The notes under the pieces: model-generated | Database searches by the model: none | Told to the model about the DNA's origin: nothing | Seen by the model: only the letters and a program-made list of their open reading frames with translations | Source of the DNA: an uncultured Opitutales bacterium | GTDB taxonomy: Bacteria; Verrucomicrobiota; Verrucomicrobiia; Opitutales; Intestinicryptomonadaceae | Direction of reading: 5' to 3' | DNA length: 32,000 bases | Assembly (NCBI GenBank): GCA_934613415.1 | Contig: CAKTSY010000003.1 | Span: 60,001-92,000 of the forward strand | Shown here: positions 1,839 through 21,029 of the stretch, piece by piece | Position numbering within the stretch: the first letter of the stretch is position 1 | Layout of the letters: each line of letters begins with the position of its first letter | Made by a program: the position numbers and the translations under genes

Positions 1839-3206
1839 ATGGATTTAAGCAAGTATATCGCAAAATCGAGAATAATAGAAATTAAAAGCGCCGACTTTGA
1901 GGGCGCAATAAAGGAAATGCTCGATGCCGTGCCAAGCGAGTTTTTAAAACCGCAAAGCACAAAAGAAGGTATACTTAAAGACGTTGTAGCCCGCGAAAAA
2001 AATATGCCCACCTACTTGGGCGGCGGCGTGCTTATGCCACATGCAAAGGCGCAAATTAAATCCAGCTATGTTTTTGTTGTGGGTATGTGCCCAAACGGCA
2101 TTAGTTTCGACACAAACCGCAACGAATATTCGGAAACAAGGCTTATATTTTTGCTTTTGGCAAACGGCGTGCTTAAAAACTACCTAAACACGCTTTCTAC
2201 AATAGCAAAGCTTTTTGCCCAGCCCGACGTTCACGCCGAAATCTTCGGCAAAACCGACTTTGAGGGCTTTAAGGAAAGCATTTGGAAAATCTTCGGCAAA
2301 AAGGGCAAGTCCGACAACAAATCGGGTTCGGGCGTAGCCAAAATGAGCAGGGTTGCAAAACGCTTTCTTTCGCAGGCAATGCGCATTGCAAAAACCTCGA
2401 AATCTACCTGCGTTATGCTTTTCGGCGACACGTTCCCTTCGGGGGTAGACACAGGCGAAATTTTTGGCGGTCTAAAAACACTTATTGTTACAGAACGCTC
2501 GGCGGAAGACTTCCCCGGCAAAAAGACGGCAACAATTTCGATTAAGTCGTACTCGGGTCGCAGAATGACGGGCTTTGGCAGCGCCATAATTATGGGGCTT
2601 ACAAAGGGACTTATAGAGCGCAACGAAAAAATATGCTGCATAGGCGGCATAAAAGACAGCAAAACTTTCGACACCGTTGTGGTTGTAGACATAGCCCAGG
2701 AATTTTCAAAAATAATGAACCTGCAAAGCAACTTGGTGCCCGCAGGCGTGAAGCCCGAAGTTGTCGAAAGAGTTTTGATTATTGCTTCGGATTTGTCGGT
2801 TGAAGGCAGGGAAGGCAAACCCGTTGGCTGCCTTTTTGTTGTAGGCGACGCAAAAAAAATCCGCCCCTTTACAAAGCAGCTTATATTAAACCCATTTTAC
2901 GGCTACAAGCCCGAAGAGCGCAACATTTTAAGCCCCTTTATGGACGAAACTGTAAAGGAGCTTTCCCTTATAGACGGCGCCGTTATTATAGACGGCTCGG
3001 GCGCAATAGAAAGTGCGGGAACATTAATTCATACGCCCGACTTTAATTTAAAGCTGCCGGGCGGGCTGGGCGCAAGGCACGCCGCGGCCTACTCGGTTTC
3101 CGTTTCGGCCGACTGCCTGGCCTTTGTAGTTTCGTCTAGCACGGGCATAATAAGCGTGTTCCGCAACGGGCAAATGCTGCCCTTGAACGAGAAAAACCAC
3201 TCTTAG
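1839..3206 (+). CDS. Three-domain protein: PTS EIIA type-2 (PtsN-like) domain + PK_C-like alpha/beta module + diadenylate cyclase (DAC/DisA_N) domain
   Basis: aa 1-150 follow the EIIA_2 pattern with the phospho-His loop TYLGGGVLMPHAK (His68, nt 2040-2042). A G/K/S-rich linker spans aa 153-171. aa ~175-295: CVMLFGD...LIVTERS...ICCIGG...VVVVDI. aa ~300-450 form the DAC domain: REGKPVGCLFVVGD, NPFYGY, LIDGAVIIDG (DGA at nt 2973-2981) and GARHAAAYSVS (R413-H414). No TM segment. Confidence 0.75.
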   Translation: MDLSKYIAKSRIIEIKSADFEGAIKEMLDAVPSEFLKPQSTKEGILKDVVAREKNMPTYLGGGVLMPHAKAQIKSSYVFVVGMCPNGISFDTNRNEYSETRLIFLLLANGVLKNYLNTLSTIAKLFAQPDVHAEIFGKTDFEGFKESIWKIFGKKGKSDNKSGSGVAKMSRVAKRFLSQAMRIAKTSKSTCVMLFGDTFPSGVDTGEIFGGLKTLIVTERSAEDFPGKKTATISIKSYSGRRMTGFGSAIIMGLTKGLIERNEKICCIGGIKDSKTFDTVVVVDIAQEFSKIMNLQSNLVPAGVKPEVVERVLIIASDLSVEGREGKPVGCLFVVGDAKKIRPFTKQLILNPFYGYKPEERNILSPFMDETVKELSLIDGAVIIDGSGAIESAGTLIHTPDFNLKLPGGLGARHAAAYSVSVSADCLAFVVSSSTGIISVFRNGQMLPLNEKNHS

Positions 3207-4617: not shown

Positions 4618-4668
4618 GGGGCAAACGCACCGAATTGCGCATGCCAAAATTTGCCCCATATAATTTTT
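4618..4668 (+). terminator. Possible terminator hairpin after mpl (weak)
   Basis: GGGGCAAA (4618-4625) pairs with TTTGCCCC (4650-4657). The 24-nt loop contains an inner CGCA/TGCG stem. A TTTTT run at 4664-4668 starts 6 nt after the stem. The large loop and displaced U-tract make this uncertain. Confidence 0.3.
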
Positions 4669-4683
4669 GGCAATAATGTTTTC

Positions 4684-4764
4684 ATGCTTACAAAAAAAGC
4701 TGCAGCAAAACGCGGCAAAAGCCTAAATAAGTACGTCTCGGAAGTCCTGGAAAGCGCGGTATAG
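4684..4764 (+). other. 26-codon ORF resembling the C-terminal helix of a ribbon-helix-helix (HicB/CopG-type) antitoxin; probable remnant
   Basis: MLTKKAAAKRGKSLNKYVSEVLESAV fits the RHH helix-2 pattern A..A...G.SLN.y+...L. It has no recognisable beta-strand or helix 1 and no toxin partner. It is not in the supplied ORF track because it is too short. Confidence 0.25.
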
Positions 4765-4781
4765 CTTTCACGCGCTATAAA

Positions 4782-5939
4782 TTACAAAAAGCTTAGCACC
4801 CATTCGGCGGCGCAGGTATTGTTTTCGGCAAACAGCAGGCGGCGCAACTGCCTGGCGTTTTCAAACGCTTCGTTTTTGCAGTTGGGGTCTTTAAGGCACT
4901 TTGCCATATAGGCCGCAAGCTTTTTTGGCGAAGCTTGCCCCTGCAAAAATTCGGGCCAAGCGGGCTTGTCTAACACAATGTTTGCAAGGCTTAGATATTT
5001 TACGTTAACAAGCATTCTGCCAATTATGTAGGTAAGCGGGTTTGCAACATACACTATTGCCCCGGGTATTCCCGCCAAACATACCAAAAGCGACATTGTG
5101 CCCGAACTCATCAAAACTGCGCTTGCTTTAAGCGGTGCATTGTCTGCCTTTTTAAGGGTTATATTTACATCGCCAAACTTCTGCAAAATTTTGTCGAGCT
5201 GCGCCTTAATTTTTTCGTCGGGGTAAAGCGTTGTAAACTTGGCGTCTTTGCCCATAAGGCGCGCCGCCTTTAGCATTACAGGATATATCTTTGCTATTGC
5301 CGATTTGCGGCTGCCAGGTAAAAGCAAAATGTCGGCATTGGCATTGTACGAAATATTAAAGCGGCTTTCGCCCGAAACAAATGGGTGCCCCACATACTGC
5401 ACGTTTAAAGAAGTATCCGCATAGCACTTGGGCTCGAATGGGAATATAACGCCCAAAGAGTCCAAACAGTCTGCCATAGCAAACCTGCGCTTTGCTTTCC
5501 ACGCCCAAATTTGCGGGCTTATATAATATAAAAGCCTAACTTGGCCGCCGCCTTTAACCGAAATTTTGCGTTTTTTAAGCTCTTTTGCCAACGCCAAATT
5601 AAAGCCTGGGTAGTCTACAAAACAAACGGCTTTTGGCTTATAGTCGGCTATCCACGAAAGCACTTTTTCGAACAAGGCCTTAAAGAAAGAATAGTTTTTT
5701 AATACCTCTACAAGGCCTACAACCGAATGCTCGGTTAAGTCGAATAAAAATTGCGAGGGGCACTCGTTGCGCAAAGCTGCCCCGCCTATTGCGCAAACTT
5801 TTTTGGTTGGGTCTATGGCGCAAAGCTGCGCAACAAGCTTTGCCGCATGCTCGTCGCCGGAATGCTCGCCCGCAATAACAAGCAAATCGCACGCGCCCCA
5901 TTTGGGGACGGGCAGCGAAATATCCAAAGCCTTTGCCAT
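4782..5939 (-). CDS. lpxB: Lipid-A-disaccharide synthase
   Basis: LLVIAGEHSGDEHAAKL, VDYPGFNLALAKELKKR, YYISPQIWAWKAKR and VQYVGHPF are colinear with LpxB (GT19). Confidence 0.9.
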   Translation of the reverse strand: MAKALDISLPVPKWGACDLLVIAGEHSGDEHAAKLVAQLCAIDPTKKVCAIGGAALRNECPSQFLFDLTEHSVVGLVEVLKNYSFFKALFEKVLSWIADYKPKAVCFVDYPGFNLALAKELKKRKISVKGGGQVRLLYYISPQIWAWKAKRRFAMADCLDSLGVIFPFEPKCYADTSLNVQYVGHPFVSGESRFNISYNANADILLLPGSRKSAIAKIYPVMLKAARLMGKDAKFTTLYPDEKIKAQLDKILQKFGDVNITLKKADNAPLKASAVLMSSGTMSLLVCLAGIPGAIVYVANPLTYIIGRMLVNVKYLSLANIVLDKPAWPEFLQGQASPKKLAAYMAKCLKDPNCKNEAFENARQLRRLLFAENNTCAAEWVLSFL

Positions 5940-5954
5940 ACGCGCAAAATTCGG

Positions 5955-6899
5955 CTAAAATTGCGACTCTATTTGGCGCGAAATTTCAAGCGCAACTTCC
6001 AACGCTCTGCGCCCCAATGCGGCGTCTACCTTCGGGTTTTTGTGCTCGATTACGCAATTTGCAAAGCTTTGCAGTTCGCGTTTTAAGGGTTCTTGTTTGT
6101 CGATTGGAACTTCAATGCGGGTTATGTTCGAAAGGTTTTCAACCTTCATTAAGTGCCCCGTTTGGTTCATAAAATCTAGCGACATATAAGAACCCGGCTG
6201 GAATATCCTGATTTCCCTAAGCTTTTTTGCGCTTGCGCGGCTGGTGTTTAGGTTTGCAATGCAGCCGTTTGCAAATTTAATGCGCGCGTTTGCAATGTCT
6301 TCGGTTTTGCTTAGCACGCGAACGCCGACAGCCTCTATGCTTTCTATGGGCGATTTTGCCAGCTGCAAAATAATGCCTATGTCGTGAATCATCAAATCAA
6401 GAACAACGCCAACTTCGGTGCCGCGCACATTAAAGGGGGCAAGCCTGTCGGCGGTAATAAACTTTGGCGACTTTACATGAGTCTCCATAAAAGTCATTAC
6501 GGGGTTAAAGTGTTCAACGTGCCCAACCTGAATAAGCAAATCTTTTTCCTTTGCCTTGGCAATCATTCTGCCGGCATCTTCGCTAGAAGTGCAAAAGGGT
6601 TTTTCCACCAACAAGTGGCAGCTCAAATCCAAAAGCGGCAGCGCAATTTGCGTATGCAAATCGGTGGGAACAACAACGCTTACGGCCTCGGCAAGCTGGG
6701 CAACCTCTTCAAGCGAGTTTGCAATTTTGCACGAATATTTGTCGGCAATCGCCTTTGCGCGTTCGGGGTTTGCGTCCATAATCGCCACAAGCTCGGTATT
6801 TTCAAGCTCGGAATAAATCCTTGCGTGGTTTTGCCCCATAGAGCCGCCGCCGATTACGGCGCATTTCAATTTTCTATTGCTTTCCATTGTAGACCCCAT
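5955..6899 (-). CDS. Gfo/Idh/MocA-family NAD-dependent oxidoreductase, GnnA/WbpB-like UDP-sugar 3-dehydrogenase candidate
   Basis: N-terminal Rossmann motif KCAVIGGGSMGQNHARIY, then LLVEKPF, VGHVEHFNPV and VVLDLMIHDIGI. At 314 aa it sits directly upstream of lpxB (15-nt gap). The family call is firm; the substrate is inferred. Confidence 0.8.
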   Translation of the reverse strand: MGSTMESNRKLKCAVIGGGSMGQNHARIYSELENTELVAIMDANPERAKAIADKYSCKIANSLEEVAQLAEAVSVVVPTDLHTQIALPLLDLSCHLLVEKPFCTSSEDAGRMIAKAKEKDLLIQVGHVEHFNPVMTFMETHVKSPKFITADRLAPFNVRGTEVGVVLDLMIHDIGIILQLAKSPIESIEAVGVRVLSKTEDIANARIKFANGCIANLNTSRASAKKLREIRIFQPGSYMSLDFMNQTGHLMKVENLSNITRIEVPIDKQEPLKRELQSFANCVIEHKNPKVDAALGRRALEVALEISRQIESQF

Positions 6900-6933
6900 A
6901 ATGCAGTTTTCGGCAAAATCTGCAAGATAGATT

Positions 6934-9741
6934 TTACAGCTTGTCGGCGTCTATTTGCTCTAGAATTGTTCCGTCGCTATTGAATATGTTTTGGGGCTTT
7001 ATGCTTACCGAATATTTCGGGTCGGAAAATGTGTTGGAAACCTTTATTTGAATTGCGCCTATTAGCGGGTTAAAGGCGGTAGACGCTATTTTTGAAATAA
7101 GCGGCAGCGTTTCGCCGCCAAGCCACTTAAAATATAACTTTGCCGAAATTTCGTCGCTAAGGCAGTTGTATTTTGCCTTGCCGCTTATGGTCGACGAAGT
7201 CCCGTTTATTTCCAGCTTTTGGAACGACAATTCGCCGTTTTCAAGAGTAACCTGCGAAAGCAGTTTGTCGTACTTAAATGTTGCTATTGGGAAGTGTAAT
7301 TTTTCGAGAGCAACCGAAATGCCGCCCAAAATATTTAGCTTTGCCAAATTTTCGTTTTTCAATTCGGCGGTTACACTGCCGTTTATGCTTTTAAAATCGT
7401 CCAAATAGCCCTGGGCAGTTCCCTTTATATCTACCAAACCTTTTTCGGGGGCTTCGTCGGCTTTCTTTTTTGCGCCTGCCAAAGCCGCAATAAAATCTTC
7501 GGCACGCTGCTGGTCTATGCCGTCTACATCGAAAGCCGCCTTAAAAAATCGGCGTTTGTTTTCCTTTTTAACCGAAAACGCCCCCAAGTTTATTTTGCCG
7601 CCGCAAAAAACGCCGCTTACGTCTTTTATATCAAAATCTTCGTCTAAGCCCGTGCCAATTCCGCGTATGCTGTCGAAGGGAAAGCCGCCTATGTCTATAA
7701 ATTCGGGAATATCGAATTTAAATTTTATGTTTTGCTTTGCGTCTTTTTCGCGCGCCAAGTTCGCACAGCGCAAATCCAAATCTATGTTGGCATAGCCCGA
7801 AAAGCGCAAGACGTCTTTTAACTCGTCAACATCTTCGCCGCCAAGGGCAAACAAGGCGTCGCTTTTCATATTCGCATTTGCAATAACCCTGCGCTCGTAA
7901 TACTTGTCCAAGCCTTTGTCTGGATCGTATGTCCAGCACAAAGCCGCTTTTGCAAAGCCCTTGTCGGTATCTAAAATGTCTACGTCGTAAATCGAAATAA
8001 CCGAAGGATCTACATTTATCTTAAGCGACACGCCGCCAAAAAGGTGATTGTTATACAGCGCATCTTCGCCCTTTATTGAAACAAAACACCAGATAAAATC
8101 GGGATCGCCCCAGCGACTTTTTATGTAGGCATTTGCATACGGAAAACCTTTTTTAAATTCGAACTCGCCCATAATGCGGCTCCACCAGTCTTCCATAAAG
8201 TGGTTTATTGCGGCGGGCCTTAAAGTGCCGTCTATATAAAATTCGTAGTCTAGATTCTTTATATTTTGGTAAATGTCGCCTTTAATTTGCCAGCCTTCGG
8301 GCGAAGCTACAAAAGCGTTGCCCGCAAACAGCTCTCCGCTTTGCGAATCGAAAGTTATGTCGGCATACGACTCTACCGACGGTATTTTATAGAACACGCA
8401 ATTTTTGCCGGCAAACTTTGCCGAAACAAAAAACTGCATATTTTCCATATTAAAATCTGCACTGCCCGCCAAATATACTCCCTCGCTAAAGTCGAAATCG
8501 CGCAGCTCATCTACTTTCGGCATAAAACTAAAGCTGGTCGCAAACAGCGGGTTTTCGAAGGTGTTAAACTGCGCGCTGACATTTGCGCCGCTTCTGGTTG
8601 CGATAAGCTTTGTATAAAAATCGCCCTTTCTTTTTATGTATATTTCCGCCATTGTCGGGATATGGTCGGCAAGCGAAAGTTTGTCGGCATAAATATCGGC
8701 ATAGGCAAATCTTTGCCCGTCAAACAAAACGTCTACAGCCGAAATTTCGGCGTTAAACAACGCCTTGTTTTCGAAATCTACAAGCGCAAATGCGTCTAGA
8801 TTTTTCAGCGTGCTTTTGCCGAATATGTCGGCATAGCCTGCTTCGAGCATAACTTTTGCGGTTTTTTTGCTTATGTTTTGCTTCGACATTTGCGCCATAA
8901 CCGCAATGTTCTCAAACGAAACATCGCCCATATTTTCTACCGGAACAACCACCGAATTTGCACCGTATACAAGCTTTAAAGAGTCAAGTCCTTCGCTTGT
9001 AGCGTCGAAATTTACAACCAGTGCCGAGTTGCCGAACCTGTCGGCATATTCGCGGCCGCTCTCCAAAAATTTGCAGAAATTGTCCCACATTTTAGCAGGC
9101 GTTTTGTGCTGGGCTTTTTCTTTTTGTTCGGGCTTGTCTTTGCCGCGCTGCGCAAAAATTTTTTCGCTAAATGTGCCTGCTGCCCTAATTGCAACTCTGC
9201 CAAAGTGCGCCCTTAGTTTTTCCAGCCTCCACCAAATGCCGCTACCAGAAAGCGCAAAGCTTGTTTTTTCAAGCAGCCAGCCCTTTTCGGAGCCTTCGCT
9301 TGAATTTATTTTTGCGTTTTCAACATAAATTTTGTTTACAAGAAATTCGCCCCTAAGCAGGGCTAAAACGGAGATGTCTACAACAACTTTGTCGGCGTTT
9401 AAAAATTCCGCCGAAGTTCCCGCAAACCTTAGCGACAGGCCTCTTATTTGAACCTGTCCTTTTGCGTTAATCCTTATGTCGTTTTCGTTGGCAACAACGC
9501 CCTGTTTGGATAAATGCGAATGCAGCAATTCAACAAAAGAATCGTTTACTGCAAACGAAACGGAATAGGCAAGCGCAAGCAACAGCGCACTTTGCGCCAA
9601 CAACGCCGCGAACAAAAAGACGTTGAATATGTAAAGAGCCGTCTGCAATGCCCTTTTAACGGCTTTGCCGAAAGCGTTGTCTTTCGATATTTTCACCTTA
9701 TTTTGCGTTTTGCGCCTGCGTTTGAGACGAGTTTGCCCCAA
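6934..9741 (-). CDS. AsmA-like (AsmA/TamB/YhdP superfamily) envelope protein, N-terminal membrane anchor
   Basis: A basic N-terminus is followed by the TM helix ALQTALYIFNVFLFAALLAQSALLLALAYSV. The AsmA-type N-terminal pattern follows (IRINAKGQVQIRGLSLRF...ADKVVVDISVLALLRGEFLVNKIYVENAKI). The C-terminal AsmA_2-like segment is FDKLLSQVTLENGELSFQKLEINGTSSTISGKAKY. The start is uncertain: TTG 9741 overlaps the upstream gene by 44 nt, while GTG 9696 lies 1 nt after its stop. Confidence 0.7.
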   Translation of the reverse strand: MGQTRLKRRRKTQNKVKISKDNAFGKAVKRALQTALYIFNVFLFAALLAQSALLLALAYSVSFAVNDSFVELLHSHLSKQGVVANENDIRINAKGQVQIRGLSLRFAGTSAEFLNADKVVVDISVLALLRGEFLVNKIYVENAKINSSEGSEKGWLLEKTSFALSGSGIWWRLEKLRAHFGRVAIRAAGTFSEKIFAQRGKDKPEQKEKAQHKTPAKMWDNFCKFLESGREYADRFGNSALVVNFDATSEGLDSLKLVYGANSVVVPVENMGDVSFENIAVMAQMSKQNISKKTAKVMLEAGYADIFGKSTLKNLDAFALVDFENKALFNAEISAVDVLFDGQRFAYADIYADKLSLADHIPTMAEIYIKRKGDFYTKLIATRSGANVSAQFNTFENPLFATSFSFMPKVDELRDFDFSEGVYLAGSADFNMENMQFFVSAKFAGKNCVFYKIPSVESYADITFDSQSGELFAGNAFVASPEGWQIKGDIYQNIKNLDYEFYIDGTLRPAAINHFMEDWWSRIMGEFEFKKGFPYANAYIKSRWGDPDFIWCFVSIKGEDALYNNHLFGGVSLKINVDPSVISIYDVDILDTDKGFAKAALCWTYDPDKGLDKYYERRVIANANMKSDALFALGGEDVDELKDVLRFSGYANIDLDLRCANLAREKDAKQNIKFKFDIPEFIDIGGFPFDSIRGIGTGLDEDFDIKDVSGVFCGGKINLGAFSVKKENKRRFFKAAFDVDGIDQQRAEDFIAALAGAKKKADEAPEKGLVDIKGTAQGYLDDFKSINGSVTAELKNENLAKLNILGGISVALEKLHFPIATFKYDKLLSQVTLENGELSFQKLEINGTSSTISGKAKYNCLSDEISAKLYFKWLGGETLPLISKIASTAFNPLIGAIQIKVSNTFSDPKYSVSIKPQNIFNSDGTILEQIDADKL

Positions 9742-11548
9742 GCTCGTACAGTGCCGCCGACAACTTTGGGTCTAGCAGCACAAGCTCGCCGTTTACAAGC
9801 GCAAATTGTTCGTTTGCCGAAATCCTTTCGCCGAAGGGAATCTGCAAAGTCGAAATTTCGTCGGTGCCCGTTCCGGGGGTGGAAATTTCAACGCAAAGTT
9901 TGTAAAGCCAGTCGCTCTTTTTAGAGTTTATCGTATAAGACGCGGCGTCTGCAACGCCCTTTGCATAGGCTTTAATGTAGAATTTTTTAGCAAAGTCTGC
10001 CAATGTTTTTAGGGCGTTTTTCTTTTGCAAAGAAAGGTTTTGCGCACCACCCAAATTTTCGCCGTTTTGGGCCGCTGCATAAAACAGTGGCTTTTCGCTT
10101 TTTAAGTCTAAAATAGATATCGAAACAATTTTCGATTTTTCGGGCATCGAAAACGACAACTTGCTTTTATAGTCTAAAAAGTCTGGCTTAAAGTTGCGTA
10201 TAAGCTCGCCGCTTATTCCGTAAATGCTGGGGTTTGAATCTACTTTAGCGTAGTACAAAGTAGCCGCCCCCTCTTTGTAAGGCTTGCCAATGCTTATGGT
10301 TTTTCGCGCGTTGTCGGCAAACGCCAAAGTTATCTTAAGCGAGGGATTGTCCAAGCCAAATTGCGCCAAATTTTCGTCGGGCAAATCGCTTACATACGAA
10401 TACGCTATTGTGTTTCTCAACGCCGACAATATGCGCGAAACCGTTGCGGCATCGGCGCTTGTGGGGGCTATTACGGTTTCGCCGCGCTTGCCCGAAACGT
10501 CCCATGCGTCGCCTACCTTTTTAAGGTTTACCATATCCGAACCCGAAGCGATTTCTATTTGCTGGCACGAGTGTTCGGGGAATCTGAAAATATTTTTTTC
10601 CCTCAAAGAATTTTGAAGGGCTGCCAAGTTTTCGAAGGGGGCCAAATCGAGAGTGAAAATTGTGGGGTTGCCAGCAATCTTTGCATAGATTTTGCCTTTT
10701 GCGGAATCGGCTTTGCCGAAATAGATTGTCTGCGAGCGGTTTGTGCCGTCTAGTGTCATACTTATCGGCCACGACATTGCGTCTAGCCCGGCCTCCACTT
10801 CGCTTACATTTTCAAAACTTTTTATTAAAGCCGACGAAACCGCATTTATAAACGCGTCTACCGCATGGCTCGAAGCCGCCGCCGAAATGGGAGTTTCGAA
10901 ACGCCATTTACCCTCGGCATTGCGGGTTAGCCCTATTCTTTTCCACGAAGTTTTTGCCCTTGTTTTTGCGTCTTCTAAGGGCAGCCTTAAGGTTATGGAA
11001 GCTATTTCGAATTTGGGAATGTCTATAACGCTTTGGCTGCGCAAACGCTCTATGTCTACCATAAGCGCATCGGCAAGCTCTCTGTCGGCAACAACAACCC
11101 TGTTTTGCATAGAGTCTAGCATATAAACCTTGTCGCCAACCGATGCGTTTTTGCCTATTTTTAGCGAATACATTGTTTTGCCGTCGCCGTACTTAAACAC
11201 GCAAACGGGTTCTTTTAGGCCGTAGTCGTCTAAACTTTGCCCGTGCGAGGCAATTTCGGAAACCGAAAAACCGTTTTCGCTGTCTAAAAATTCCAAATTT
11301 CTTAAAATTCTGTTTACCGCAAAATAGTTTGCCTGCCACTGAATTGGCGAAATTATGCGCCACTTGTTGTTTTCGAACACCAAAATGCGGGGCTTGTCTA
11401 CGTTCTTGCCGTCTACCTGAAGCCTTGTAATTTCAACCAAAGCCCTCTGGCTTTGCGCTGGGGCCGCCTGCGAAAATTCAAGTTTAAATATGGCAAGCAG
11501 CGCGGCCACATTGGCAATCAAAAGAAAAATCGTAAAACGTATCCGCAT
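9698..11548 (-). CDS. DUF4340-like single-pass membrane/periplasmic protein (616 aa), partner of GldG-type ABC systems
   Basis: The start was moved to ATG 11548 (MRIRFTIFLLIANVAALLAIF, signal-anchor), preceded by AGGAGG. The body is long and beta-rich. It sits immediately after a GldG-like gene, as is typical for DUF4340. The family call rests on pattern and context, not on a search. Confidence 0.6.
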   Translation of the reverse strand: MRIRFTIFLLIANVAALLAIFKLEFSQAAPAQSQRALVEITRLQVDGKNVDKPRILVFENNKWRIISPIQWQANYFAVNRILRNLEFLDSENGFSVSEIASHGQSLDDYGLKEPVCVFKYGDGKTMYSLKIGKNASVGDKVYMLDSMQNRVVVADRELADALMVDIERLRSQSVIDIPKFEIASITLRLPLEDAKTRAKTSWKRIGLTRNAEGKWRFETPISAAASSHAVDAFINAVSSALIKSFENVSEVEAGLDAMSWPISMTLDGTNRSQTIYFGKADSAKGKIYAKIAGNPTIFTLDLAPFENLAALQNSLREKNIFRFPEHSCQQIEIASGSDMVNLKKVGDAWDVSGKRGETVIAPTSADAATVSRILSALRNTIAYSYVSDLPDENLAQFGLDNPSLKITLAFADNARKTISIGKPYKEGAATLYYAKVDSNPSIYGISGELIRNFKPDFLDYKSKLSFSMPEKSKIVSISILDLKSEKPLFYAAAQNGENLGGAQNLSLQKKNALKTLADFAKKFYIKAYAKGVADAASYTINSKKSDWLYKLCVEISTPGTGTDEISTLQIPFGERISANEQFALVNGELVLLDPKLSAALYELGANSSQTQAQNAK

Positions 11549-11555
11549 AATAAAA

Positions 11556-13037
11556 CTACCTCCTAAAGAAAGAAACCAAAAGCCCAATTATTGCAATAAA
11601 CGCAGGCAAAAGCGCAAACCTAAACGCAAGAGAAAACACATCGCCTTCGCTGAGCGTAATAGAATACTTGCTCATCGAGCGCGGCACAATGTTAAGCATA
11701 CTGTCTCTTTCAAGCATCCAGTTTACGGTATTGTATAAAAGCTTAGAGTTGCCCAAGCGGTTGAAAAGTCTGTTCGAGGCAAAGTCTTCGTCGCCAAAAA
11801 CTGCAAGTTTGCCGCCGGGTATTTTTAGCCCCAAATCGTTGTTGCCCGTGCGCGATGCTACCATTGCAACGGGAACGGGGCCTTTAAAATCAACCGCTTC
11901 GTCGTACTTAAAGCCCGAATTTTTGTAGTTTTTCTCCGCCCAGCTTGCAGGGGTGCTATACATTAAAACGTCTCTTTTAATGCTTTCGTCTATGGCGGCT
12001 CCCATATCCTCCCTTACCATTCTTGTAGAGCCGAACTGAAGGGGCAAATCGGCATCTACCAAATAGCGAACAATCTTGTGCGGATTTTGCGAAAAGCTTT
12101 TTACAACCAAGTCACCCCCCGTGCTTTCGCCCGAATTTGCGGCTTCTATAACCATTGCATCGTCGGTGCGAATGCCCCAGTCGAACAGAATTTCGTCTAG
12201 ACCGTTCGTGTCGCCCATACCGAAAAACATAATTATGTTGCCGTTCGATTTTAACAGGTAGTTTTTAAGCAAATCTATTTCGCGCGGCAAAAAGGTTGCC
12301 TGCGGAGCTGCAATAACAATAAGGGCGGCGTTTTGCGGAATTTGTTTTGCCTCGGTTAAATTTAAGTCGGCAATTTTGAAATTGCGGCTTGTTAAATACG
12401 ATGCAAATTCCGACATACCCTTTATAGGATCGGCACTGCGGTAGCTCATTTCGCCGTGGCCGGAAAGGAAATATATTTTGCCGTCGTCGTTTTGCGTTAC
12501 CGAAAGCATTGCCGAACTTATCGCCTGCTCGCCCTTCCACGAAACTTTGTTCGGGGCGTTAAGGTCGTATAAATCCGAAAGGCTTAAAATCTTGAATTTT
12601 TTTGCGGCGTTGTTCGAAACAATCACGCTGTTTTCTATGTCTTTGCCGAACTTTGATACAATTTCCTCTACCTTTTTACTTTCTATATGGGGATTTATAA
12701 AATGCGCCCTTATCTTTGCCGAGTTTTTCATCGACAAATATTCGTATTGGGAAAGGGTTTTGTGAAGGTCTTTTAAAACCGAATCGCCGTCTAAGTCGCC
12801 TATGCCGCGCCTTACGGTAACGTAAATGTCTATGGGCTCTTTTAGGCCGTTTATATATGCCGTGCTTTCAAGCGAAAGCGAGTTTTTGCGGTTTTCGGAA
12901 ATATCGAATTTAAAGTAGTGCCTTGCCGCCAAAAAGTTTAGCGACAAAAACAGCAAAACACCCAAGAAAATCTGAATTGTTAGGTTCAGGGTATTTGCCT
13001 TGCGCGCAAATCTAAAATCTTTAAAAGCCGCTCTCAT
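11556..13037 (-). CDS. GldG-like ABC-transporter auxiliary protein (ABC_transp_aux family), 493 aa
   Basis: The start was moved to ATG 13037, which overlaps the permease stop (ATGA, 13034-13037). It has the N-terminal TM LTIQIFLGVLLFLSLNFLAA followed by FDISENRKNSLS, the motif KIYFLSGHGE, and the C-terminal TM FALLPAFIAIIGLLVSFF. Confidence 0.8.
   Translation of the reverse strand: MRAAFKDFRFARKANTLNLTIQIFLGVLLFLSLNFLAARHYFKFDISENRKNSLSLESTAYINGLKEPIDIYVTVRRGIGDLDGDSVLKDLHKTLSQYEYLSMKNSAKIRAHFINPHIESKKVEEIVSKFGKDIENSVIVSNNAAKKFKILSLSDLYDLNAPNKVSWKGEQAISSAMLSVTQNDDGKIYFLSGHGEMSYRSADPIKGMSEFASYLTSRNFKIADLNLTEAKQIPQNAALIVIAAPQATFLPREIDLLKNYLLKSNGNIIMFFGMGDTNGLDEILFDWGIRTDDAMVIEAANSGESTGGDLVVKSFSQNPHKIVRYLVDADLPLQFGSTRMVREDMGAAIDESIKRDVLMYSTPASWAEKNYKNSGFKYDEAVDFKGPVPVAMVASRTGNNDLGLKIPGGKLAVFGDEDFASNRLFNRLGNSKLLYNTVNWMLERDSMLNIVPRSMSKYSITLSEGDVFSLAFRFALLPAFIAIIGLLVSFFRR
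11559..11564 (-). promoter_or_regulatory. Shine-Dalgarno AGGAGG for the DUF4340 gene (the only strong SD noticed in the window)
   Basis: The minus strand reads AGGAGGTAGTTTTATTATG. The SD is embedded in the last codons and stop of the GldG-like gene, 10 nt before ATG 11548. Confidence 0.5.
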
Positions 13038-13798
13038 CTGCGTATGTCCATAACTATTGTTGTTATCGCCAAAAACAGGGCGCAAATGCTAGAATAGTAA
13101 AAGAAGGGCCTAGTATCCAACATTGCCGAACCGAAATCTTCCAAATGCTTAAAGGTTTGCATATAATCGGCCAAGGCTCCAAACCAGGCAAAGCTTCCGC
13201 TTTCGGGAATGTAGAATTTGTTTAAAAGCCCCCCGCCTATAAGCACGCAAAACAGCATGCAAAAGCTAAGCATTGCGGCAACTAGCGTAGTGCGCGTCAA
13301 AGACGAGGCAAAAACGCCTATTGCAACGTAGCTTAGCCCGCTTATAAAGATAAATAAATAGCCAGAAACCGTCTCGCCCAGCGAAAACACACCGCCATTT
13401 ACCGCCGAATGCGGTATAAACAAAAGAGTTATAAGCGGGAAAATCAAAGTAATGGCCCAAAGCAAAACATAATATAGGTAGCACGCCGCAAACTTTGCCG
13501 CCACTATTTGGAAAATGCTAACGGGCGTTGTCATTAAAGCATCTAACACGCCCGACTTTTTTTCGTCGGCAAAGCTGCGCATTGTAAGAATGGGCACCAA
13601 AAACAAAACGGGAATCCAAAACACCGCCAAAAACTTTTCGGTTGCCGACACGGTAGACGCCCTTTCGCTTAAATCCACCAAGCTTAGCAGGTATATAAAG
13701 CCCATAAACGCCGTAAACAGCACGCCTGCAACGTATGTAGACGGGCTTAGCATCATCATATACACCTGATTCGAAAACATTGTATAAAATTTTTTCAT
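13034..13798 (-). CDS. ABC-2 type transporter permease (GldF-like), 254 aa
   Basis: About six hydrophobic helices. It lies between an ABC ATPase and a GldG-like gene, with a 6-nt gap to the ATPase gene. Confidence 0.8.
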   Translation of the reverse strand: MKKFYTMFSNQVYMMMLSPSTYVAGVLFTAFMGFIYLLSLVDLSERASTVSATEKFLAVFWIPVLFLVPILTMRSFADEKKSGVLDALMTTPVSIFQIVAAKFAACYLYYVLLWAITLIFPLITLLFIPHSAVNGGVFSLGETVSGYLFIFISGLSYVAIGVFASSLTRTTLVAAMLSFCMLFCVLIGGGLLNKFYIPESGSFAWFGALADYMQTFKHLEDFGSAMLDTRPFFYYSSICALFLAITTIVMDIRR

Positions 13799-13804
13799 TC
13801 GCTT

Positions 13805-14809
13805 TTACGAGTCTTTGTTTTTTATATCGACAACGCTTTCCCAGCTGCGTTTTGTAGCCGCCATAAATATGTCTTCAAGCGTGGGCTTTTTGCGGTAAAC
13901 CTCTCTAAGACGCAATGCCGTGTCTTTCGAAAGCTCGCAAACAATCTTTTCGCCCATATCTTCTGGTATCGGCGTTTTTACGGTAAATTCCGAAAAGCCT
14001 TCGTCGTCTTGCTTGGTTGCAGAATCCAAAACAAGAGAAGAGTCTATTATACCAAGCAAATTTTGCATTTGCTCGGACGAAGCTTTTGCGGATATTTTGT
14101 ATACGCTTTCGGTTATAAATTCGCGGCGCAATTCGTCGGGACTGCCGTTGGCTACAATTTCGCCCTGATTTATTATTATAACCCTGTCGCACATAAGCTC
14201 TATTTCGGGCAGTATGTGGCTGCTTATAATAACGCTCATTTCGCCCCTAAGCGAATTTATCAGGCGGCGTATCGCCAAAATCTGGTGCGGGTCTAGCCCT
14301 ATGGTGGGCTCGTCCATAATGATAACTTCGGGCTTTGCCAAAATTGCGTCGGCAATGCCAACCCTTTGCCTAAAACCTTTCGAAAGATTGCCTATTATGC
14401 GCTTTGCTGCCTTTCTTTTAAGCTGGCAAATTTCCATAACCTCGTCTACTCTGGCCTTGTATTCGCGGCGAGACAATCCCTTAATTTTTGCCCTGTAGCG
14501 CAAATATTCAATAACGCGCATATCTTCGGGCAGGGGGTTGTTTTCAAGCATAAAGCCTATGTGTTTTTGCGCCAAATCGGGGTAGTTTGCAACGCTTTCG
14601 CCGCAAATGTAGGCGCAGCCGCTGGTGGCTGGCATCAACCCGCTTATTATGCGCATAGTCGTGCTTTTCCCCGCCCCGTTTGGACCCAGAAAACCGAGTA
14701 TCTCGCCCTTTTTAATCGAGAACGAGACATCGTCTAAAGCTTTCAGTTCGCCGTATTTCTTTGTTAAGTGGCTTACGACGACCGAATAATTTTCGCCCGC
14801 TTCGGCCAT
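13805..14809 (-). CDS. ABC transporter ATP-binding protein (GldA-like) with C-terminal accessory domain
   Basis: Walker A GPNGAGKSTT, signature LSKGFRQRVGIA, Walker B IIMDEPTIGLDP, H-loop SSHIL, and a ~90-aa C-terminal extension. Confidence 0.9.
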   Translation of the reverse strand: MAEAGENYSVVVSHLTKKYGELKALDDVSFSIKKGEILGFLGPNGAGKSTTMRIISGLMPATSGCAYICGESVANYPDLAQKHIGFMLENNPLPEDMRVIEYLRYRAKIKGLSRREYKARVDEVMEICQLKRKAAKRIIGNLSKGFRQRVGIADAILAKPEVIIMDEPTIGLDPHQILAIRRLINSLRGEMSVIISSHILPEIELMCDRVIIINQGEIVANGSPDELRREFITESVYKISAKASSEQMQNLLGIIDSSLVLDSATKQDDEGFSEFTVKTPIPEDMGEKIVCELSKDTALRLREVYRKKPTLEDIFMAATKRSWESVVDIKNKDS

Positions 14810-14821
14810 AGCGACTTTCGG

Positions 14822-15181
14822 CTATGCCACTTTCTTTGCTATGTACGACTTAATGTCGCCCAAAGTGCGCAATGTGGCAATATCGTCGTTGTCTATAGAA
14901 GTTCCAATGGCTTCTTCAACGGCAAGAACAATTTCCACCATTGTAAGCGAGTCGAAACCCAATTCGTCGGTAATTACCATATCGTCGGAGGGGTTTTTAA
15001 GAAGGGGTTTTTTGTCGTCTTCGGCAAATCTTTCGAGAATGCCCAAAACTATGGGGGTAATCAATGCAATGTTGCCGGTTTTTCTGAAAGATACGGCCGC
15101 GTCTATAGTCTCTTGCGAGCATTTTTTTAGGTTCTCTCTAAGAACCGCTTCGTCTTCTGCTGATAAGTTCATATTGTTCAT
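14822..15181 (-). CDS. Acyl carrier protein-like protein with a ~40-aa N-terminal extension (119 aa)
   Basis: Canonical phosphopantetheine site ELGFDSLTMVEIVLAVEEAIG (Ser78, nt 14948-14950) and a helix IV-like LGDIKSYIAKK. An extra N-terminal segment, MNNMNLSAEDEAVLRENLKKCSQETIDAAVSFRKTGNIAL, precedes the ACP fold. Confidence 0.75.
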   Translation of the reverse strand: MNNMNLSAEDEAVLRENLKKCSQETIDAAVSFRKTGNIALITPIVLGILERFAEDDKKPLLKNPSDDMVITDELGFDSLTMVEIVLAVEEAIGTSIDNDDIATLRTLGDIKSYIAKKVA

Positions 15182-15188
15182 AAAAGTA

Positions 15189-15216
15189 AGTATTAAAATT
15201 TTGCCGAGCTTTTCAA
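15189..15216 (-). promoter_or_regulatory. Candidate sigma70-like promoter, TTGAAA-16-AATACT, ending 7 nt before the ACP ATG (leaderless geometry)
   Basis: The minus strand reads TAG-AA-TTGAAA(15216-15211)-16 nt-AATACT(15194-15189)-TACTTTT-ATG(15181). It lies in the 37-nt gap after the beta-helix gene stop. Confidence 0.35.
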
Positions 15217-15218
15217 TT

Positions 15219-17573
15219 CTATTTTTTATCGGGAAATTCGTCTACAATTTCGTTTTTTTGCACAACAAGGTTTTTAACCGTGTTTTTTTCGCAATATACG
15301 CCAAGTTTCGGCATATAGGGGCTTTTTGCGAATTGGTTGTTTACAACTGCCACATTCTCGCAATGCGCAAAGTAGAACGAGCCGCGATAGTCGTGCGCAA
15401 CAACCCTTGGGTTTTCGTTAATAATCTTGTTATTTTTAAATATAAGATTTTTTGTGTTGTTTGCATATGCAATTAAACCGCAACTATTTATGAATGTATT
15501 ATTTTCGAACAACACGTTGTTTAATATGGGGTAGCACTTCCTTACGGTAGAAGGGTCTACCTCTAAATATACGCTAAGGGAAATGTCGCGGGCAAAGCCG
15601 TCGTTTTTGCCGCCGGCGGTTGCATTGGCGTTTTCGAATGTGCAGTTTTTAACCACAATGTTCGAAGCCCCATACCCTTCGCTCCAAACATTGAATGTAT
15701 AGCCGCTTTCTATTTTCAACGCTCCGCTTTCGTGGTGCTTAAAGCGGCAGTTGTCTACGGTAATGTCGCTTGCCAAAAGCAAAATTCCCCTTGCCCTGTT
15801 GTCGTGAAAATACGAATTGCGCAATATTATGTTTTTAGAGCCGAAGCGGCGGTTGAACATAACAAAGCCGTCTTTGGTCTGCTTGGGCAGCTTTTCCCTA
15901 AAGGTAATGTAGTGCTCGCCTTTAATCTTGTTCGGCATAACCTTTATTGCGGCTATCGTTCCCGTAAAGCCCGTCGGCGAATAGTCGGAATGGCGAAGCT
16001 CTATTTTGTCGCCTATGCCATATTGGCTTATGGTTCTAAAATTTTTTGTTCTTAGAGTGTTTTCGTTAAGGGTAAGGGCGTATCCCGTGTTGTCGTGAAC
16101 GTTAAGGCAGTCGTCTGCCCCATACGAAAATTCGCAGTTTTCTATCTTTAAAAAGCCGCACGAGCTTGCAATATGGAAGTGGTCGGCAGCCGACGTTATA
16201 TAGCGTTTGTTTACACCCCTGCCGAACGGCGGCACAATTTTAACGTTGCGGATAATCCAGTGATTTTGCGTGCCGCCGGCCCCCATTGCGTGGCCCGCGG
16301 TAGAATATATATTTACGTTTTCCAGCAGCATGTGCGAATTGCTTTGCATGGCAATGCCAGTCATATGGTAGTAGTAGTGCTGCAGCCTAAAGAAATATCC
16401 CTTTTGCAAAACGCCGTAGGCTGCCTTGCTCGTATGCACCCTTAGCACGTTGTCCGAAAGCCACTCGGTTTTTATGCTTTTGTCTTTGTAGTTGTTTATG
16501 CCAAAGCCCGAAGCGCCGTCTAGCCCCACCGTTTGGTTTTTAACATCGTAGCGCGAAAGCATTGTAAGTTTAACGTCTTTGCGCGGGAATTTTTCGTATT
16601 CTACAAACTTTATGTCGAAATATTTTGAGGGCTCAACGCCCACAACTTCGACCAAACTTGCAATGGGGTCTATGCTCCAATCCCAGTCTATGTTGAAATT
16701 TTTAAATTCCACCCTTTCGCAATTTTTTATGTCTATGTCGTTGTGGTATTGCTTTTGGAATATAAAGGTGCTGTTGTTTGCGTCGAAAACAAAATCCTTT
16801 AGACCGTCGAATATAACGGCCGCGTTTTCCCTAAAGTAATAGGTGCCCTTTTCCATAACAAGTTTTGCCGCCGAATTGCTTTTGCAAAAGTCTATAAGCT
16901 CGTTTAGCTTGGCGGTAATGCTTTCGGGGGCGTTCGGCACAATGCCGTAGTCTTTTGCGTTTATAACCAAGCCGCCTTTGTTTGCGGGCTTTTTAATGTC
17001 GAACTCTTTTGCGCCCCTTGGCAGCACAAAGTTTGCCGATTTTGCGTCGCCAAAATTCTTTGTTATGTCTAAAAACTCTATATTGTCGCCCTCGTATACG
17101 GCAAGGTTTGCGATTTTCCCCGAAAGGTTGCCGTGCGCCATAATGGTAAGCTGGTAGTCGTCGTTTTGGTTGGTTTGAACCGAGCAACTAAACTGCCTAA
17201 AAGTCGGCGCATAGTGCCTGTTTTGCGAAGTTAAATTCCAATAGGGCATACCCGCGGCCTTGTCGGAGCGCACAAAAATATGCAAAAACTGGTCGGGACT
17301 TAGGCTGTGCGAGTTGTCTATTAAAAAGTCGAATTTTATGGTATATTTGGTGTTCGGCTTTAAAACGCCCTTTTTGGTTATGAATATTGTTCTGTATTTG
17401 CCGTCGTTTTTGGCAACCGAAAAGTCCAGGCCGTCGTCGTCGTTTTCGGAAACATACGAACCGCCCTTTGTGCCTACTTGCCTGTCGAAACCCTCTATAA
17501 CGGGGGTATCTGCAGCATATGCTGCAATGCTAAACAAAAGCAAAAATGCCAGCGAAAGAATTTTTCTACGCAT
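15219..17573 (-). CDS. Secreted right-handed parallel beta-helix protein (glycoside hydrolase/lyase-like) with an N-terminal beta-sandwich (CBM-like) module
   Basis: Signal peptide MRRKILSLAFLLLFSIAAYAADTP. A Pectate_lyase_3-like entry segment follows (VINAKDYGIVPN...GTYYF). Repeated beta-helix turns include NVNIYSTAGHAMGAGG, DHFHIASSCGFLKIENCEFSYGADDCLNVHDN, FHDNRARGILLLASDITVDNCRF and VVKNCTFENA. The CAZy family could not be assigned by eye. Confidence 0.65.
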   Translation of the reverse strand: MRRKILSLAFLLLFSIAAYAADTPVIEGFDRQVGTKGGSYVSENDDDGLDFSVAKNDGKYRTIFITKKGVLKPNTKYTIKFDFLIDNSHSLSPDQFLHIFVRSDKAAGMPYWNLTSQNRHYAPTFRQFSCSVQTNQNDDYQLTIMAHGNLSGKIANLAVYEGDNIEFLDITKNFGDAKSANFVLPRGAKEFDIKKPANKGGLVINAKDYGIVPNAPESITAKLNELIDFCKSNSAAKLVMEKGTYYFRENAAVIFDGLKDFVFDANNSTFIFQKQYHNDIDIKNCERVEFKNFNIDWDWSIDPIASLVEVVGVEPSKYFDIKFVEYEKFPRKDVKLTMLSRYDVKNQTVGLDGASGFGINNYKDKSIKTEWLSDNVLRVHTSKAAYGVLQKGYFFRLQHYYYHMTGIAMQSNSHMLLENVNIYSTAGHAMGAGGTQNHWIIRNVKIVPPFGRGVNKRYITSAADHFHIASSCGFLKIENCEFSYGADDCLNVHDNTGYALTLNENTLRTKNFRTISQYGIGDKIELRHSDYSPTGFTGTIAAIKVMPNKIKGEHYITFREKLPKQTKDGFVMFNRRFGSKNIILRNSYFHDNRARGILLLASDITVDNCRFKHHESGALKIESGYTFNVWSEGYGASNIVVKNCTFENANATAGGKNDGFARDISLSVYLEVDPSTVRKCYPILNNVLFENNTFINSCGLIAYANNTKNLIFKNNKIINENPRVVAHDYRGSFYFAHCENVAVVNNQFAKSPYMPKLGVYCEKNTVKNLVVQKNEIVDEFPDKK

Positions 17574-17588
17574 ATTTTTTAATCCAAT

Positions 17589-19652: not shown

Positions 19653-19679
19653 TTTCAGTAAAAAATTTTGTAGTTTAAC

Positions 19680-21021
<1,342 letters not shown>

Positions 21022-21029
<8 letters not shown>

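Follow-up and report, generated by a model that had tools for sequence, protein, structure and literature searches.

A Conserved Five-Gene Module of Opitutales Places a Divergent AsmA-like Protein beside an ABC-2/GldG/DUF4340 Cassette

Introduction

The 32,000-nucleotide (nt) stretch of DNA analyzed here (hereafter the window; positions 60,001 to 92,000 of contig CAKTSY010000003.1, from an uncultured Opitutales bacterium) contains a string of genes in which an ATP-binding cassette (ABC) ATPase, an ABC-2 permease, a GldG-like ABC auxiliary protein, and a DUF4340 protein are followed by a large protein of the AsmA-like type. These five genes form a module that is conserved across the order Opitutales, and their products may plausibly constitute a single inner-membrane-anchored, ATP-powered apparatus for the export of lipid or glycolipid, a reading that we put forward tentatively. 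The linkage is real and conserved, and what is new is the arrangement of known envelope lipid transport parts, for which the mechanism given below is a proposal. How AsmA-like bridges (YhdP, TamB, and YdbH) are loaded, given direction, and energized is a standing question in outer-membrane biogenesis, and the order-wide adjacency of ABC-2 and AsmA-like genes offers a concrete, testable candidate for their energy coupling.

Results and Discussion

Conservation of the Five-Gene Core

Two sets of loci were compared with the window: a gut set of 37 loci from representative Opitutales genomes, against which the eight proteins of the window's gene string were run by tblastn, and a metagenome set of 80 environmental loci, obtained from a scan with a distant subfamily and analyzed by hidden Markov model searches of six-frame open reading frames (ORFs). 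The gut set and the near-identical relatives of the large protein are all Opitutales, and include gut metagenome-assembled genomes, “Merdousia”, Coraliomargarita sp. CAG:312, a Puniceicoccaceae isolate, and Intestinicryptomonas porci; the metagenome-assembled genome SUG3736 shows 95% identity to the window. The order acyl carrier protein (ACP)-ATPase-permease-GldG-DUF4340-large gene is kept in every gut locus with enough upstream DNA (~30), at identities to the window of 25–28% for the large protein and ~65% for the ATPase. In the metagenome set the DUF4340 gene lies directly 5′ of the large gene in 63 of the 64 loci whose upstream sequence exceeds 700 nt, and each of the 36 loci with over 5.9 kb has the complete set of four upstream genes. 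The single exception, L135 (1465–3123), carries a remote, partial, 26%-identical relative of the large protein without DUF4340 upstream, where a metallo-β-lactamase-fold hydrolase gene and an opposite-strand gene are found.

More distant family members retain as much of the same order as their loci display: permease-GldG-DUF4340-large-TPR-ligase (L001), GldG-DUF4340-large (L042), birA-ATPase-permease-GldG-DUF4340-large-histidine kinase (L045, Opitutaceae), DUF4340-large (L047), and ATPase to large gene followed by an epimerase gene on the other strand (L048). A further locus found from a DUF4340 homolog, L051, reads birA-ATPase-permease-GldG-DUF4340-large-accB-accC; the ACP gene and gnnA-lpxB occur in none of these distant loci. 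The further a component lies from the cytoplasm, the lower its cross-lineage identity to the window protein: ~55% for the ATPase, 40% for the permease, 32% for the GldG-like protein, 26% for the DUF4340 protein, and 21% for the large protein. The flanks differ by lineage, with rsmE/ACP and gnnA-lpxB in one and birA with a histidine kinase, epimerase, TPR, or accBC gene in the others, and it is this between-lineage comparison that provides the strongest argument, because just the five core genes are common there. The original prediction had noted the linkage of the cassette to the large protein and proposed a gene-neighborhood census; the conservation of this linkage goes well beyond what could be judged from the window, for the DUF4340 and large genes stay adjacent even between lineages whose large proteins are ~21% identical and whose flanks are different. 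Members of the large-protein family hardly ever occur apart from the cassette, and the cassette does occur without the large gene, an asymmetry that makes the family look dependent on the cassette rather than the cassette on the family.

The junction between the DUF4340 and large genes is tight in most relatives as well. There the distance from the DUF4340 stop codon to the first ATG of the large gene is mostly 5–116 nt, and the two calls overlap in L017 (our ORF calls) and in L048 (deposited gene calls). The two genes share a reading frame in 30 of 67 environmental loci, mostly with the frame open immediately after a single stop; a read-through fusion across that in-frame stop was considered and dropped, as 30 of 67 is near the one-third expectation given the relatedness of the loci.

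The Large Protein Is a Divergent AsmA-like Protein

The large protein belongs to no curated family, and its own family is large and unannotated. When the window protein was compared with Pfam, no family was matched even at E ≤10, the AsmA clan included, and its best NCBIfam match was GspN_Lepto at 19 bits (cut-off 50), with AsmA at E 0.055; in family members, both the N- and the C-terminal end resemble the Leptospira-type GspN model with scores below its threshold. A word-indexed search with the large protein returned three relatives. A profile search of 1.84 billion representatives returned 1299 clusters at E ≤1e-3 and 343 at E ≤1e-30, and nearly all of the best 150 of the 1299 matches are ~900–980 residues long. 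Comparison of 50 aligned members with Pfam (E ≤0.01 for YhdP) gave 14 matches to YhdP, two to TamB, and two to AsmA. The best of these members nearly reaches the Pfam YhdP cut-off (E 6.2e-12, 44.7 bits compared with 46), its residues 622–840 corresponding to profile positions 955–1177; none of the 50 attains the gathering score of any AsmA-clan model.

Alignment of the family profile with the Escherichia coli proteins using hhalign identified residues 983–1258 of YhdP (240 columns, probability 75%, E 2.5e-5) and residues 316–578 of AsmA (probability 46%, E 2.1e-4), in both cases through the C-terminal ~250 residues of the large-protein family. There is no detectable similarity to TamB (probability 2%, E 0.021) or YdbH (probability 0.4%, E 0.15), for which no meaningful region was aligned. 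Three homologs carry the NCBI name “AsmA-like C-terminal region-containing protein”. The build of the protein also resembles that of YhdP and AsmA, in which one N-terminal inner-membrane anchor carries a long, mostly β periplasmic body (1266 and 617 residues, respectively, compared with 920 for the large protein): there is a single N-terminal membrane helix (hydropathy peak at residues 16–50, AlphaFold helix at 8–43), and the AlphaFold model (predicted local distance difference test, pLDDT, 86.8) continues from this helix into ~60 β-strands with few helices.

The ~60-strand model is compatible with a continuous β-groove. Foldseek comparison of the model with the PDB gave matches of low TM-score, namely the β-belt of ApoB100 (E 4e-6, TM 0.17), LptD, and, at rank 30, TamB, so the groove architecture is unconfirmed by fold comparison; searches of the family profiles against the sequences of solved structures gave nothing meaningful. 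On the basis of the YhdP matches of family members, the C-terminal alignment, and the anchored β-strand model, we assign the large protein, with moderate confidence, to the AsmA-like superfamily as a divergent member, the assignment resting on its C-terminal region and overall build. The AsmA-like label of the original prediction thereby survives through remote family-level homology, the model, and the NCBI names, but not through a Pfam match that the window protein gives itself: it fails all AsmA/TamB-family profiles at E ≤10, which counts against the label on the original prediction’s own terms. The large protein is the fastest-evolving product of the operon, being 85% identical in the closest relative (L003/L006) compared with 94–100% for the other seven.

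The ABC Cassette and the DUF4340 Protein

The ATPase, which is the energy module of the core, combines an ABC domain with a DrrA-type C-terminal extension, the permease has ~6 membrane helices as judged by hydropathy, and the GldG-like protein is anchored at both ends (membrane helices at residues 15–39 and 465–493 by hydropathy) on either side of a large periplasmic GIFT-type domain, for which the Pfam IFT52_GIFT match is weak. The nearest NCBIfam model of the ATPase is GldA, from the gliding-protein set TIGR03522/TIGR03518/TIGR03521, at 284.3 bits against a cut-off of 402.6; the permease reaches 87.8 bits against 288.5 for the GldF equivalog and the GldG-like protein 51.7 against 389.85 for that of GldG. 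GldAFG orthology is ruled out by these wide shortfalls at all three equivalog cut-offs, and the three proteins are therefore relatives of the gliding proteins and not orthologs. The label “GldAFG-type” in the original prediction is appropriate with respect to the shared domain families and the two-ended anchoring of GldG, but not with respect to orthology.

The DUF4340 protein has one N-terminal membrane helix (residues 1–26, hydropathy), and its AlphaFold model (pLDDT 85.6) shows this anchor followed by repeated strand-helix (α/β) units placed in the periplasm. Foldseek comparison of the model (m21e8bd21db29) with the PDB gave weak but very consistent matches to bacterial sliding clamps (E ~5e-4, TM 0.11–0.18), and no Lpt protein was matched. 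The α/β repeats and the weak sliding-clamp resemblance rule out an LptC/LptA-like jellyroll. Within the Opitutales module the DUF4340 protein is 614–685 residues long, compared with 450 in L136, a remote cassette. In Verrucomicrobium spinosum one region of a DUF4340 gene was scored as essential by transposon sequencing (PMC12283558), a possible sign of essentiality elsewhere that we count in favor of an export apparatus.

Layout of the Gene String

The five core genes stand within a run of eight consecutive minus-strand genes that fill positions 4782–15181 of the window (Table 1). Gaps of 12 nt and 6 nt separate the ACP gene from the ATPase gene and the latter from the permease gene, respectively, and the permease stop codon overlaps the ATG of the GldG-like gene in a 4-nt ATGA. 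A 7-nt gap precedes the DUF4340 gene, with an AGGAGG at 11559–11564, 10 nt 5′ of its ATG. The large gene begins 1 nt past the DUF4340 gene if GTG 9696 is used, or overlaps it by 44 nt if TTG 9741 is used; it is followed by a 34-nt gap to the Gfo/Idh/MocA (gnnA-like) gene, which is in turn 15 nt from lpxB. The gene positions and strand given in the original prediction, its junction spacings, and its membrane topologies agree with our ORF and sequence readings and with the hydropathy profiles and AlphaFold models. Its observation that the gaps lack terminators is true and uninformative, because gaps of at most 34 nt are too short to hold any.

Table 1. Features of the gene string, listed in the direction of reading (window coordinates, minus strand throughout)
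Feature	Position	Length	Assignment based on
Promoter-like element, TTGAAA-16-AATACT	15189–15216		9 of 12 positions match; no evidence of transcription start
Extended ACP-like protein	14822–15181	119 aa	Pfam PP-binding, 35.8 bits, above cut-off
ABC ATPase, DrrA/GldA type	13805–14809	334 aa	ABC_tran E 3.6e-28; C-terminal DrrA1-3_C, 28.5 bits
ABC-2 permease	13034–13798	254 aa	ABC2_membrane_3/2/4 models above Pfam cut-offs
GldG-like ABC auxiliary protein	11556–13037	493 aa	ABC_transp_aux, 65.6 bits (cut-off 34.7)
DUF4340 protein (PF14238)	9698–11548	616 aa	162.5 bits (cut-off 25), E 1.7e-47, three stretches
Divergent AsmA/YhdP-like protein	6934–9696 (GTG) or to 9741 (TTG)	920 or 935 aa	Family-level homology
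GnnA-like UDP-GlcNAc 3-dehydrogenase candidate	5955–6899	314 aa	GFO_IDH_MocA E 8.9e-28
LpxB, lipid-A-disaccharide synthase	4782–5939	385 aa	TIGR00215, 196.7 bits (cut-off 190.25); Pfam LpxB E 8.1e-70

Comparison with Known Systems

In concept the nearest system is Lpt (LptB2FGC-LptA-LptDE), in which an inner-membrane ABC transporter with anchored periplasmic proteins sets direction at the expense of ATP (PMC10345924). The protein families are different throughout: the ATPase scores 143 bits against an LptB cut-off of 240, the permease is of the ABC-2 and not the LptF/G type, and family scans of the eight proteins revealed no OstA/LptC-type domain. Judged by homology, the parts are those of the AsmA-like superfamily and of GldG/DUF4340 cassettes. 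The latter are widespread, and a SAR11 preprint predicts a four-part ABC/ABC-2/GldG/DUF4340 transporter with the same components in the same order. Such cassettes end at DUF4340, as in L136, whereas the Opitutales version adds a longer DUF4340 protein and an obligatory fifth, AsmA-like gene. The Flavobacterium proteins GldA, GldF, and GldG share the three domain families and the two-ended anchoring of GldG, and provide the best-scoring named models, to which the module adds a DUF4340 and an AsmA-like gene; neither gld nor type IX secretion system (T9SS) genes occur near the module in the window neighborhood or the gut loci. In E. coli, no ABC genes adjoin the four AsmA-like genes that were looked at, whereas the Opitutales large gene follows the ABC-2/GldG/DUF4340 cassette.

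Proposed Mechanism and Alternatives

If the module is an export apparatus, the DrrA/GldA-type ATPase and the ABC-2 permease would be its inner-membrane engine. On that engine, the doubly anchored GldG-like protein would build a periplasmic platform or adaptor together with the N-anchored DUF4340 protein, and the N-anchored AsmA/YhdP-like protein would be a long conduit towards the outer membrane. The transporter would extract an amphipathic lipid from the inner membrane and feed it to the AsmA-like protein, which would give directional flow, much as LptB2FGC feeds the Lpt bridge. In the gut lineage, where the module is joined to a specialized ACP and to gnnA-lpxB, delivery of lipid to the outer membrane and synthesis of lipid A would be co-expressed. 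The narrower proposal, that a dedicated ABC-2 transporter, acting through GldG/DUF4340 adaptors, loads an AsmA/YhdP-type bridge and gives it direction, we regard as conceivable but on the doubtful side. The analysis shows the gene content and order, the tight spacing, the membrane topology, the remote homology, and the conservation of the core; co-transcription, physical assembly, cargo, direction, and the use of ATP for the cargo are elements that we infer. In favor of the export reading we count the strict linkage, the restriction of what lineages share to the five genes, the asymmetry between cassette and large gene, the tight junctions, and the AsmA-like nature of the large protein. Lipids or lipid-linked molecules are common cargo of ABC-2 exporters (Wzm/Wzt, TarGH, ABCA/ABCG), and all three accessory proteins of the module are anchored in the inner membrane with large periplasmic parts, as the export reading would have it. 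Lipid-synthesis genes at the flanks, which are ACP, gnnA, and lpxB in the gut lineage and birA elsewhere, with accBC in the single locus L051, form a weak but recurring association.

Several points weigh against an export apparatus of this kind. That the transporter and the AsmA-like protein would touch and form one machine is read from synteny; the loci of the census are relatives of one another and, where they carry a name, belong to a single order; and in each lineage synteny extends past the core (rsmE, birA), which indicates that part of the conservation is inheritance. The large protein has, as described above, no Pfam match of its own, and no outer-membrane partner gene is conserved beside the module among the downstream genes of 70 environmental loci. 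GldG’s GIFT-type domain was reportedly linked to carbohydrate biology by Beatson and Ponting in 2004, in which case the cargo may not be plain phospholipid. E. coli YhdP, TamB, and YdbH work without a known ABC partner, and bulk phospholipid exchange is reported to depend on the proton-motive force and not on ATP (PMC10345924).

These last observations equally support the alternative that two independent envelope systems share an operon, namely an exporter with its own cargo and an AsmA-like protein that serves as a passive phospholipid bridge like YhdP, co-expressed and making no contact. ABC/GldG/DUF4340 cassettes that occur without an AsmA-like gene (L136 and SAR11) point the same way, as do the common stringing together of envelope genes, of which lpxB is an example here, and the inclusion of unrelated neighbors (birA, rsmE) in the lineage synteny. 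However, the large gene stands beside DUF4340 in all gut loci as well as in nearly all the metagenome loci, in lineages with no other common neighbor, the junctions are very short or overlapping, and mere co-regulation rarely keeps strict adjacency and order at ~21% identity. We consider two independent systems somewhat unlikely.

A second alternative is that the cargo is a glycoconjugate or something else destined for the surface (a lipooligosaccharide, a polysaccharide, or a glycolipid based on lipid A), or that the module serves a surface machine in the manner of GldAFG in Flavobacterium; the large protein would then act as a periplasmic scaffold or glycolipid chute and not as a phospholipid bridge. 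It would fit with GldA, GldF, and GldG as the closest named families, with the GIFT-type domain suggested by the weak IFT52_GIFT match, with the inclusion of O-antigen and teichoic acid exporters among ABC-2 exporters, and with the gnnA-lpxB genes that adjoin the module in the gut lineage. We judge it improbable, given the wide margins by which the Gld equivalog cut-offs are missed, the lack of conserved gld, T9SS, or glycosyltransferase genes beside the core in gut and environmental loci, the absence of the gnnA-lpxB linkage outside the gut lineage, and the YhdP/AsmA-type C-terminal homology of the large protein. A retrograde or maintenance role like that of Mla, Pqi, and Let, in which mislocalized outer-membrane lipid would be returned to the inner membrane with ATP, has a well-established precedent in Mla (PMC10345924) and a direction that sequence does not fix, but it is very unlikely in view of the lack of MCE-domain, MlaA-like, or MlaC-like genes in the string or the gut loci, the typical role of ABC-2 systems as exporters, and the linkage of the module to biosynthetic (ACP, lpxB, birA) and not stress genes.

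Full-text literature searches, in which DUF4340 is seldom mentioned, found no published link of DUF4340 or GldG to an AsmA-like protein and no account of the combination seen here, in keeping with the original prediction, whose author was aware of no earlier description; the accessible reviews and 2026 papers name no ATP source for AsmA-like bridges. An export apparatus of the proposed type would be the first AsmA/YhdP-type bridge with a dedicated ABC-2 loader and a third ATP-driven trans-envelope lipid architecture beside Lpt and MCE, and would assign a function to the widespread GldG/DUF4340 cassettes. For two large orphan families, DUF4340 and the GldG-type ABC auxiliary proteins, the module offers a first lead on function. 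Should its parts prove independent, there would still be a new, unannotated AsmA-like subfamily of more than 1000 sequence clusters. Cultured relatives exist (e.g., Intestinicryptomonas porci), and the idea is thus open to experiment.

Lineage-Specific Neighbors of the Core

The ACP-like protein consists of a conserved N-terminal extension of ~45 residues and an ACP core, with the phosphopantetheine serine of a DSL motif at residue 78. A search of 5.8 billion proteins gave 22 homologs, all at least 55% identical and with DSLTMVEIVL invariant. Its best scores against AcpP equivalogs are 30–42 bits (cut-offs 66–106), which, with its length of 119 residues and narrow distribution, rules out a housekeeping AcpP (~78 residues). 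Every gut Opitutales locus with sufficient DNA has the gene 5′ of the ATPase gene, and none of the 80 environmental loci carries it; the protein is a gut-Opitutales-specific carrier addition to the unit.

The best solved relative of the Gfo/Idh/MocA protein is 7bvj (E 3.7e-52, residues 11–311 of 314), which is GnnA (10.1101/2024.11.05.622173), and this similarity over the full length to a characterized enzyme supports the GnnA-like call of the original prediction; the score against the archaeal UDP-N-acetylglucosamine (UDP-GlcNAc) 3-dehydrogenase model of NCBIfam is 232 bits (cut-off 450). No GnnB-type aminotransferase was found by family scans of the eight genes, nor was one seen by eye among the remaining ORFs of the window. 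In most gut loci the large gene is directly followed by the gnnA-lpxB pair, which the environmental loci lack. Among the gut loci, L013, L022, L023, L025, and L041 lack the pair downstream, and L030 has lpxB without gnnA. The original prediction had treated the bracketing ACP and lipid A genes as part of the unit, a proposal that does not hold beyond the gut Opitutales nor in the five gut loci without gnnA-lpxB.

In environmental relatives birA lies directly 5′ of the ATPase gene in all 32 loci with more than 7.6 kb of upstream sequence, a linkage that may reflect common descent or a connection with fatty acid synthesis. The gene before birA is nadC in L051 and L137, and L051 has accB-accC after the large gene. 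Of 70 environmental loci, 37 encode a hybrid sensor histidine kinase of ~1300 residues (CHASE/PAS/HisKA/receiver) 3′ of the large gene and on its strand, starting 30–290 nt past the large gene in L056–L133; the gut lineage lacks this kinase.

Boundaries of the String and Other Observations

The promoter-like element lies where the original prediction placed it, but matches at 9 of 12 positions and belongs to a class whose frequency is at chance level (18 such sites in the region compared with 16.2 ± 4.2 in shuffled sequences). Promoter and terminator scans of the region gave counts equal to the shuffled expectation, and we rejected these counts as evidence for the boundaries of the unit. Rfam and tRNA scans of the window gave no matches. 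On the same strand, a gene for a 784-residue β-helix protein ends 37 nt upstream of the ACP gene. In most gut genomes a divergent rsmE-like gene lies upstream of the ACP gene, which therefore opens the co-directional block in those genomes. The upstream minus-strand genes of the window (15219–21029), which encode the β-helix protein, a 687-residue ThuA-domain protein, and a 449-residue Gfo/Idh/MocA oxidoreductase, are common to the closest relatives L003/L006 only; with an rsmE-like gene in the other gut Opitutales, this indicates a local rearrangement.

Antisense ORFs of 100–260 residues occur opposite real genes, for example at 14841–15476 on the plus strand (211 residues, opposite the ACP gene and the end of the β-helix gene); they are almost certainly not genes, though picked up by simple longest-ORF calling. 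Downstream of lpxB is a convergent gene for an mpl-type ligase on the plus strand. In L003, the 85%-identity relative, a HicA/HicB-type toxin-antitoxin pair (14981–15578) is located between lpxB and the mpl-like ligase gene, at a site where the window has just a 165-nt gap (4618–4781). Further downstream, on the plus strand at 1839–3206, the window encodes a 455-residue protein that is 97% identical over its full length to an L003 protein with PTS EIIA_2 and diadenylate cyclase (DAC) domains, an unusual pairing for c-di-AMP synthesis.

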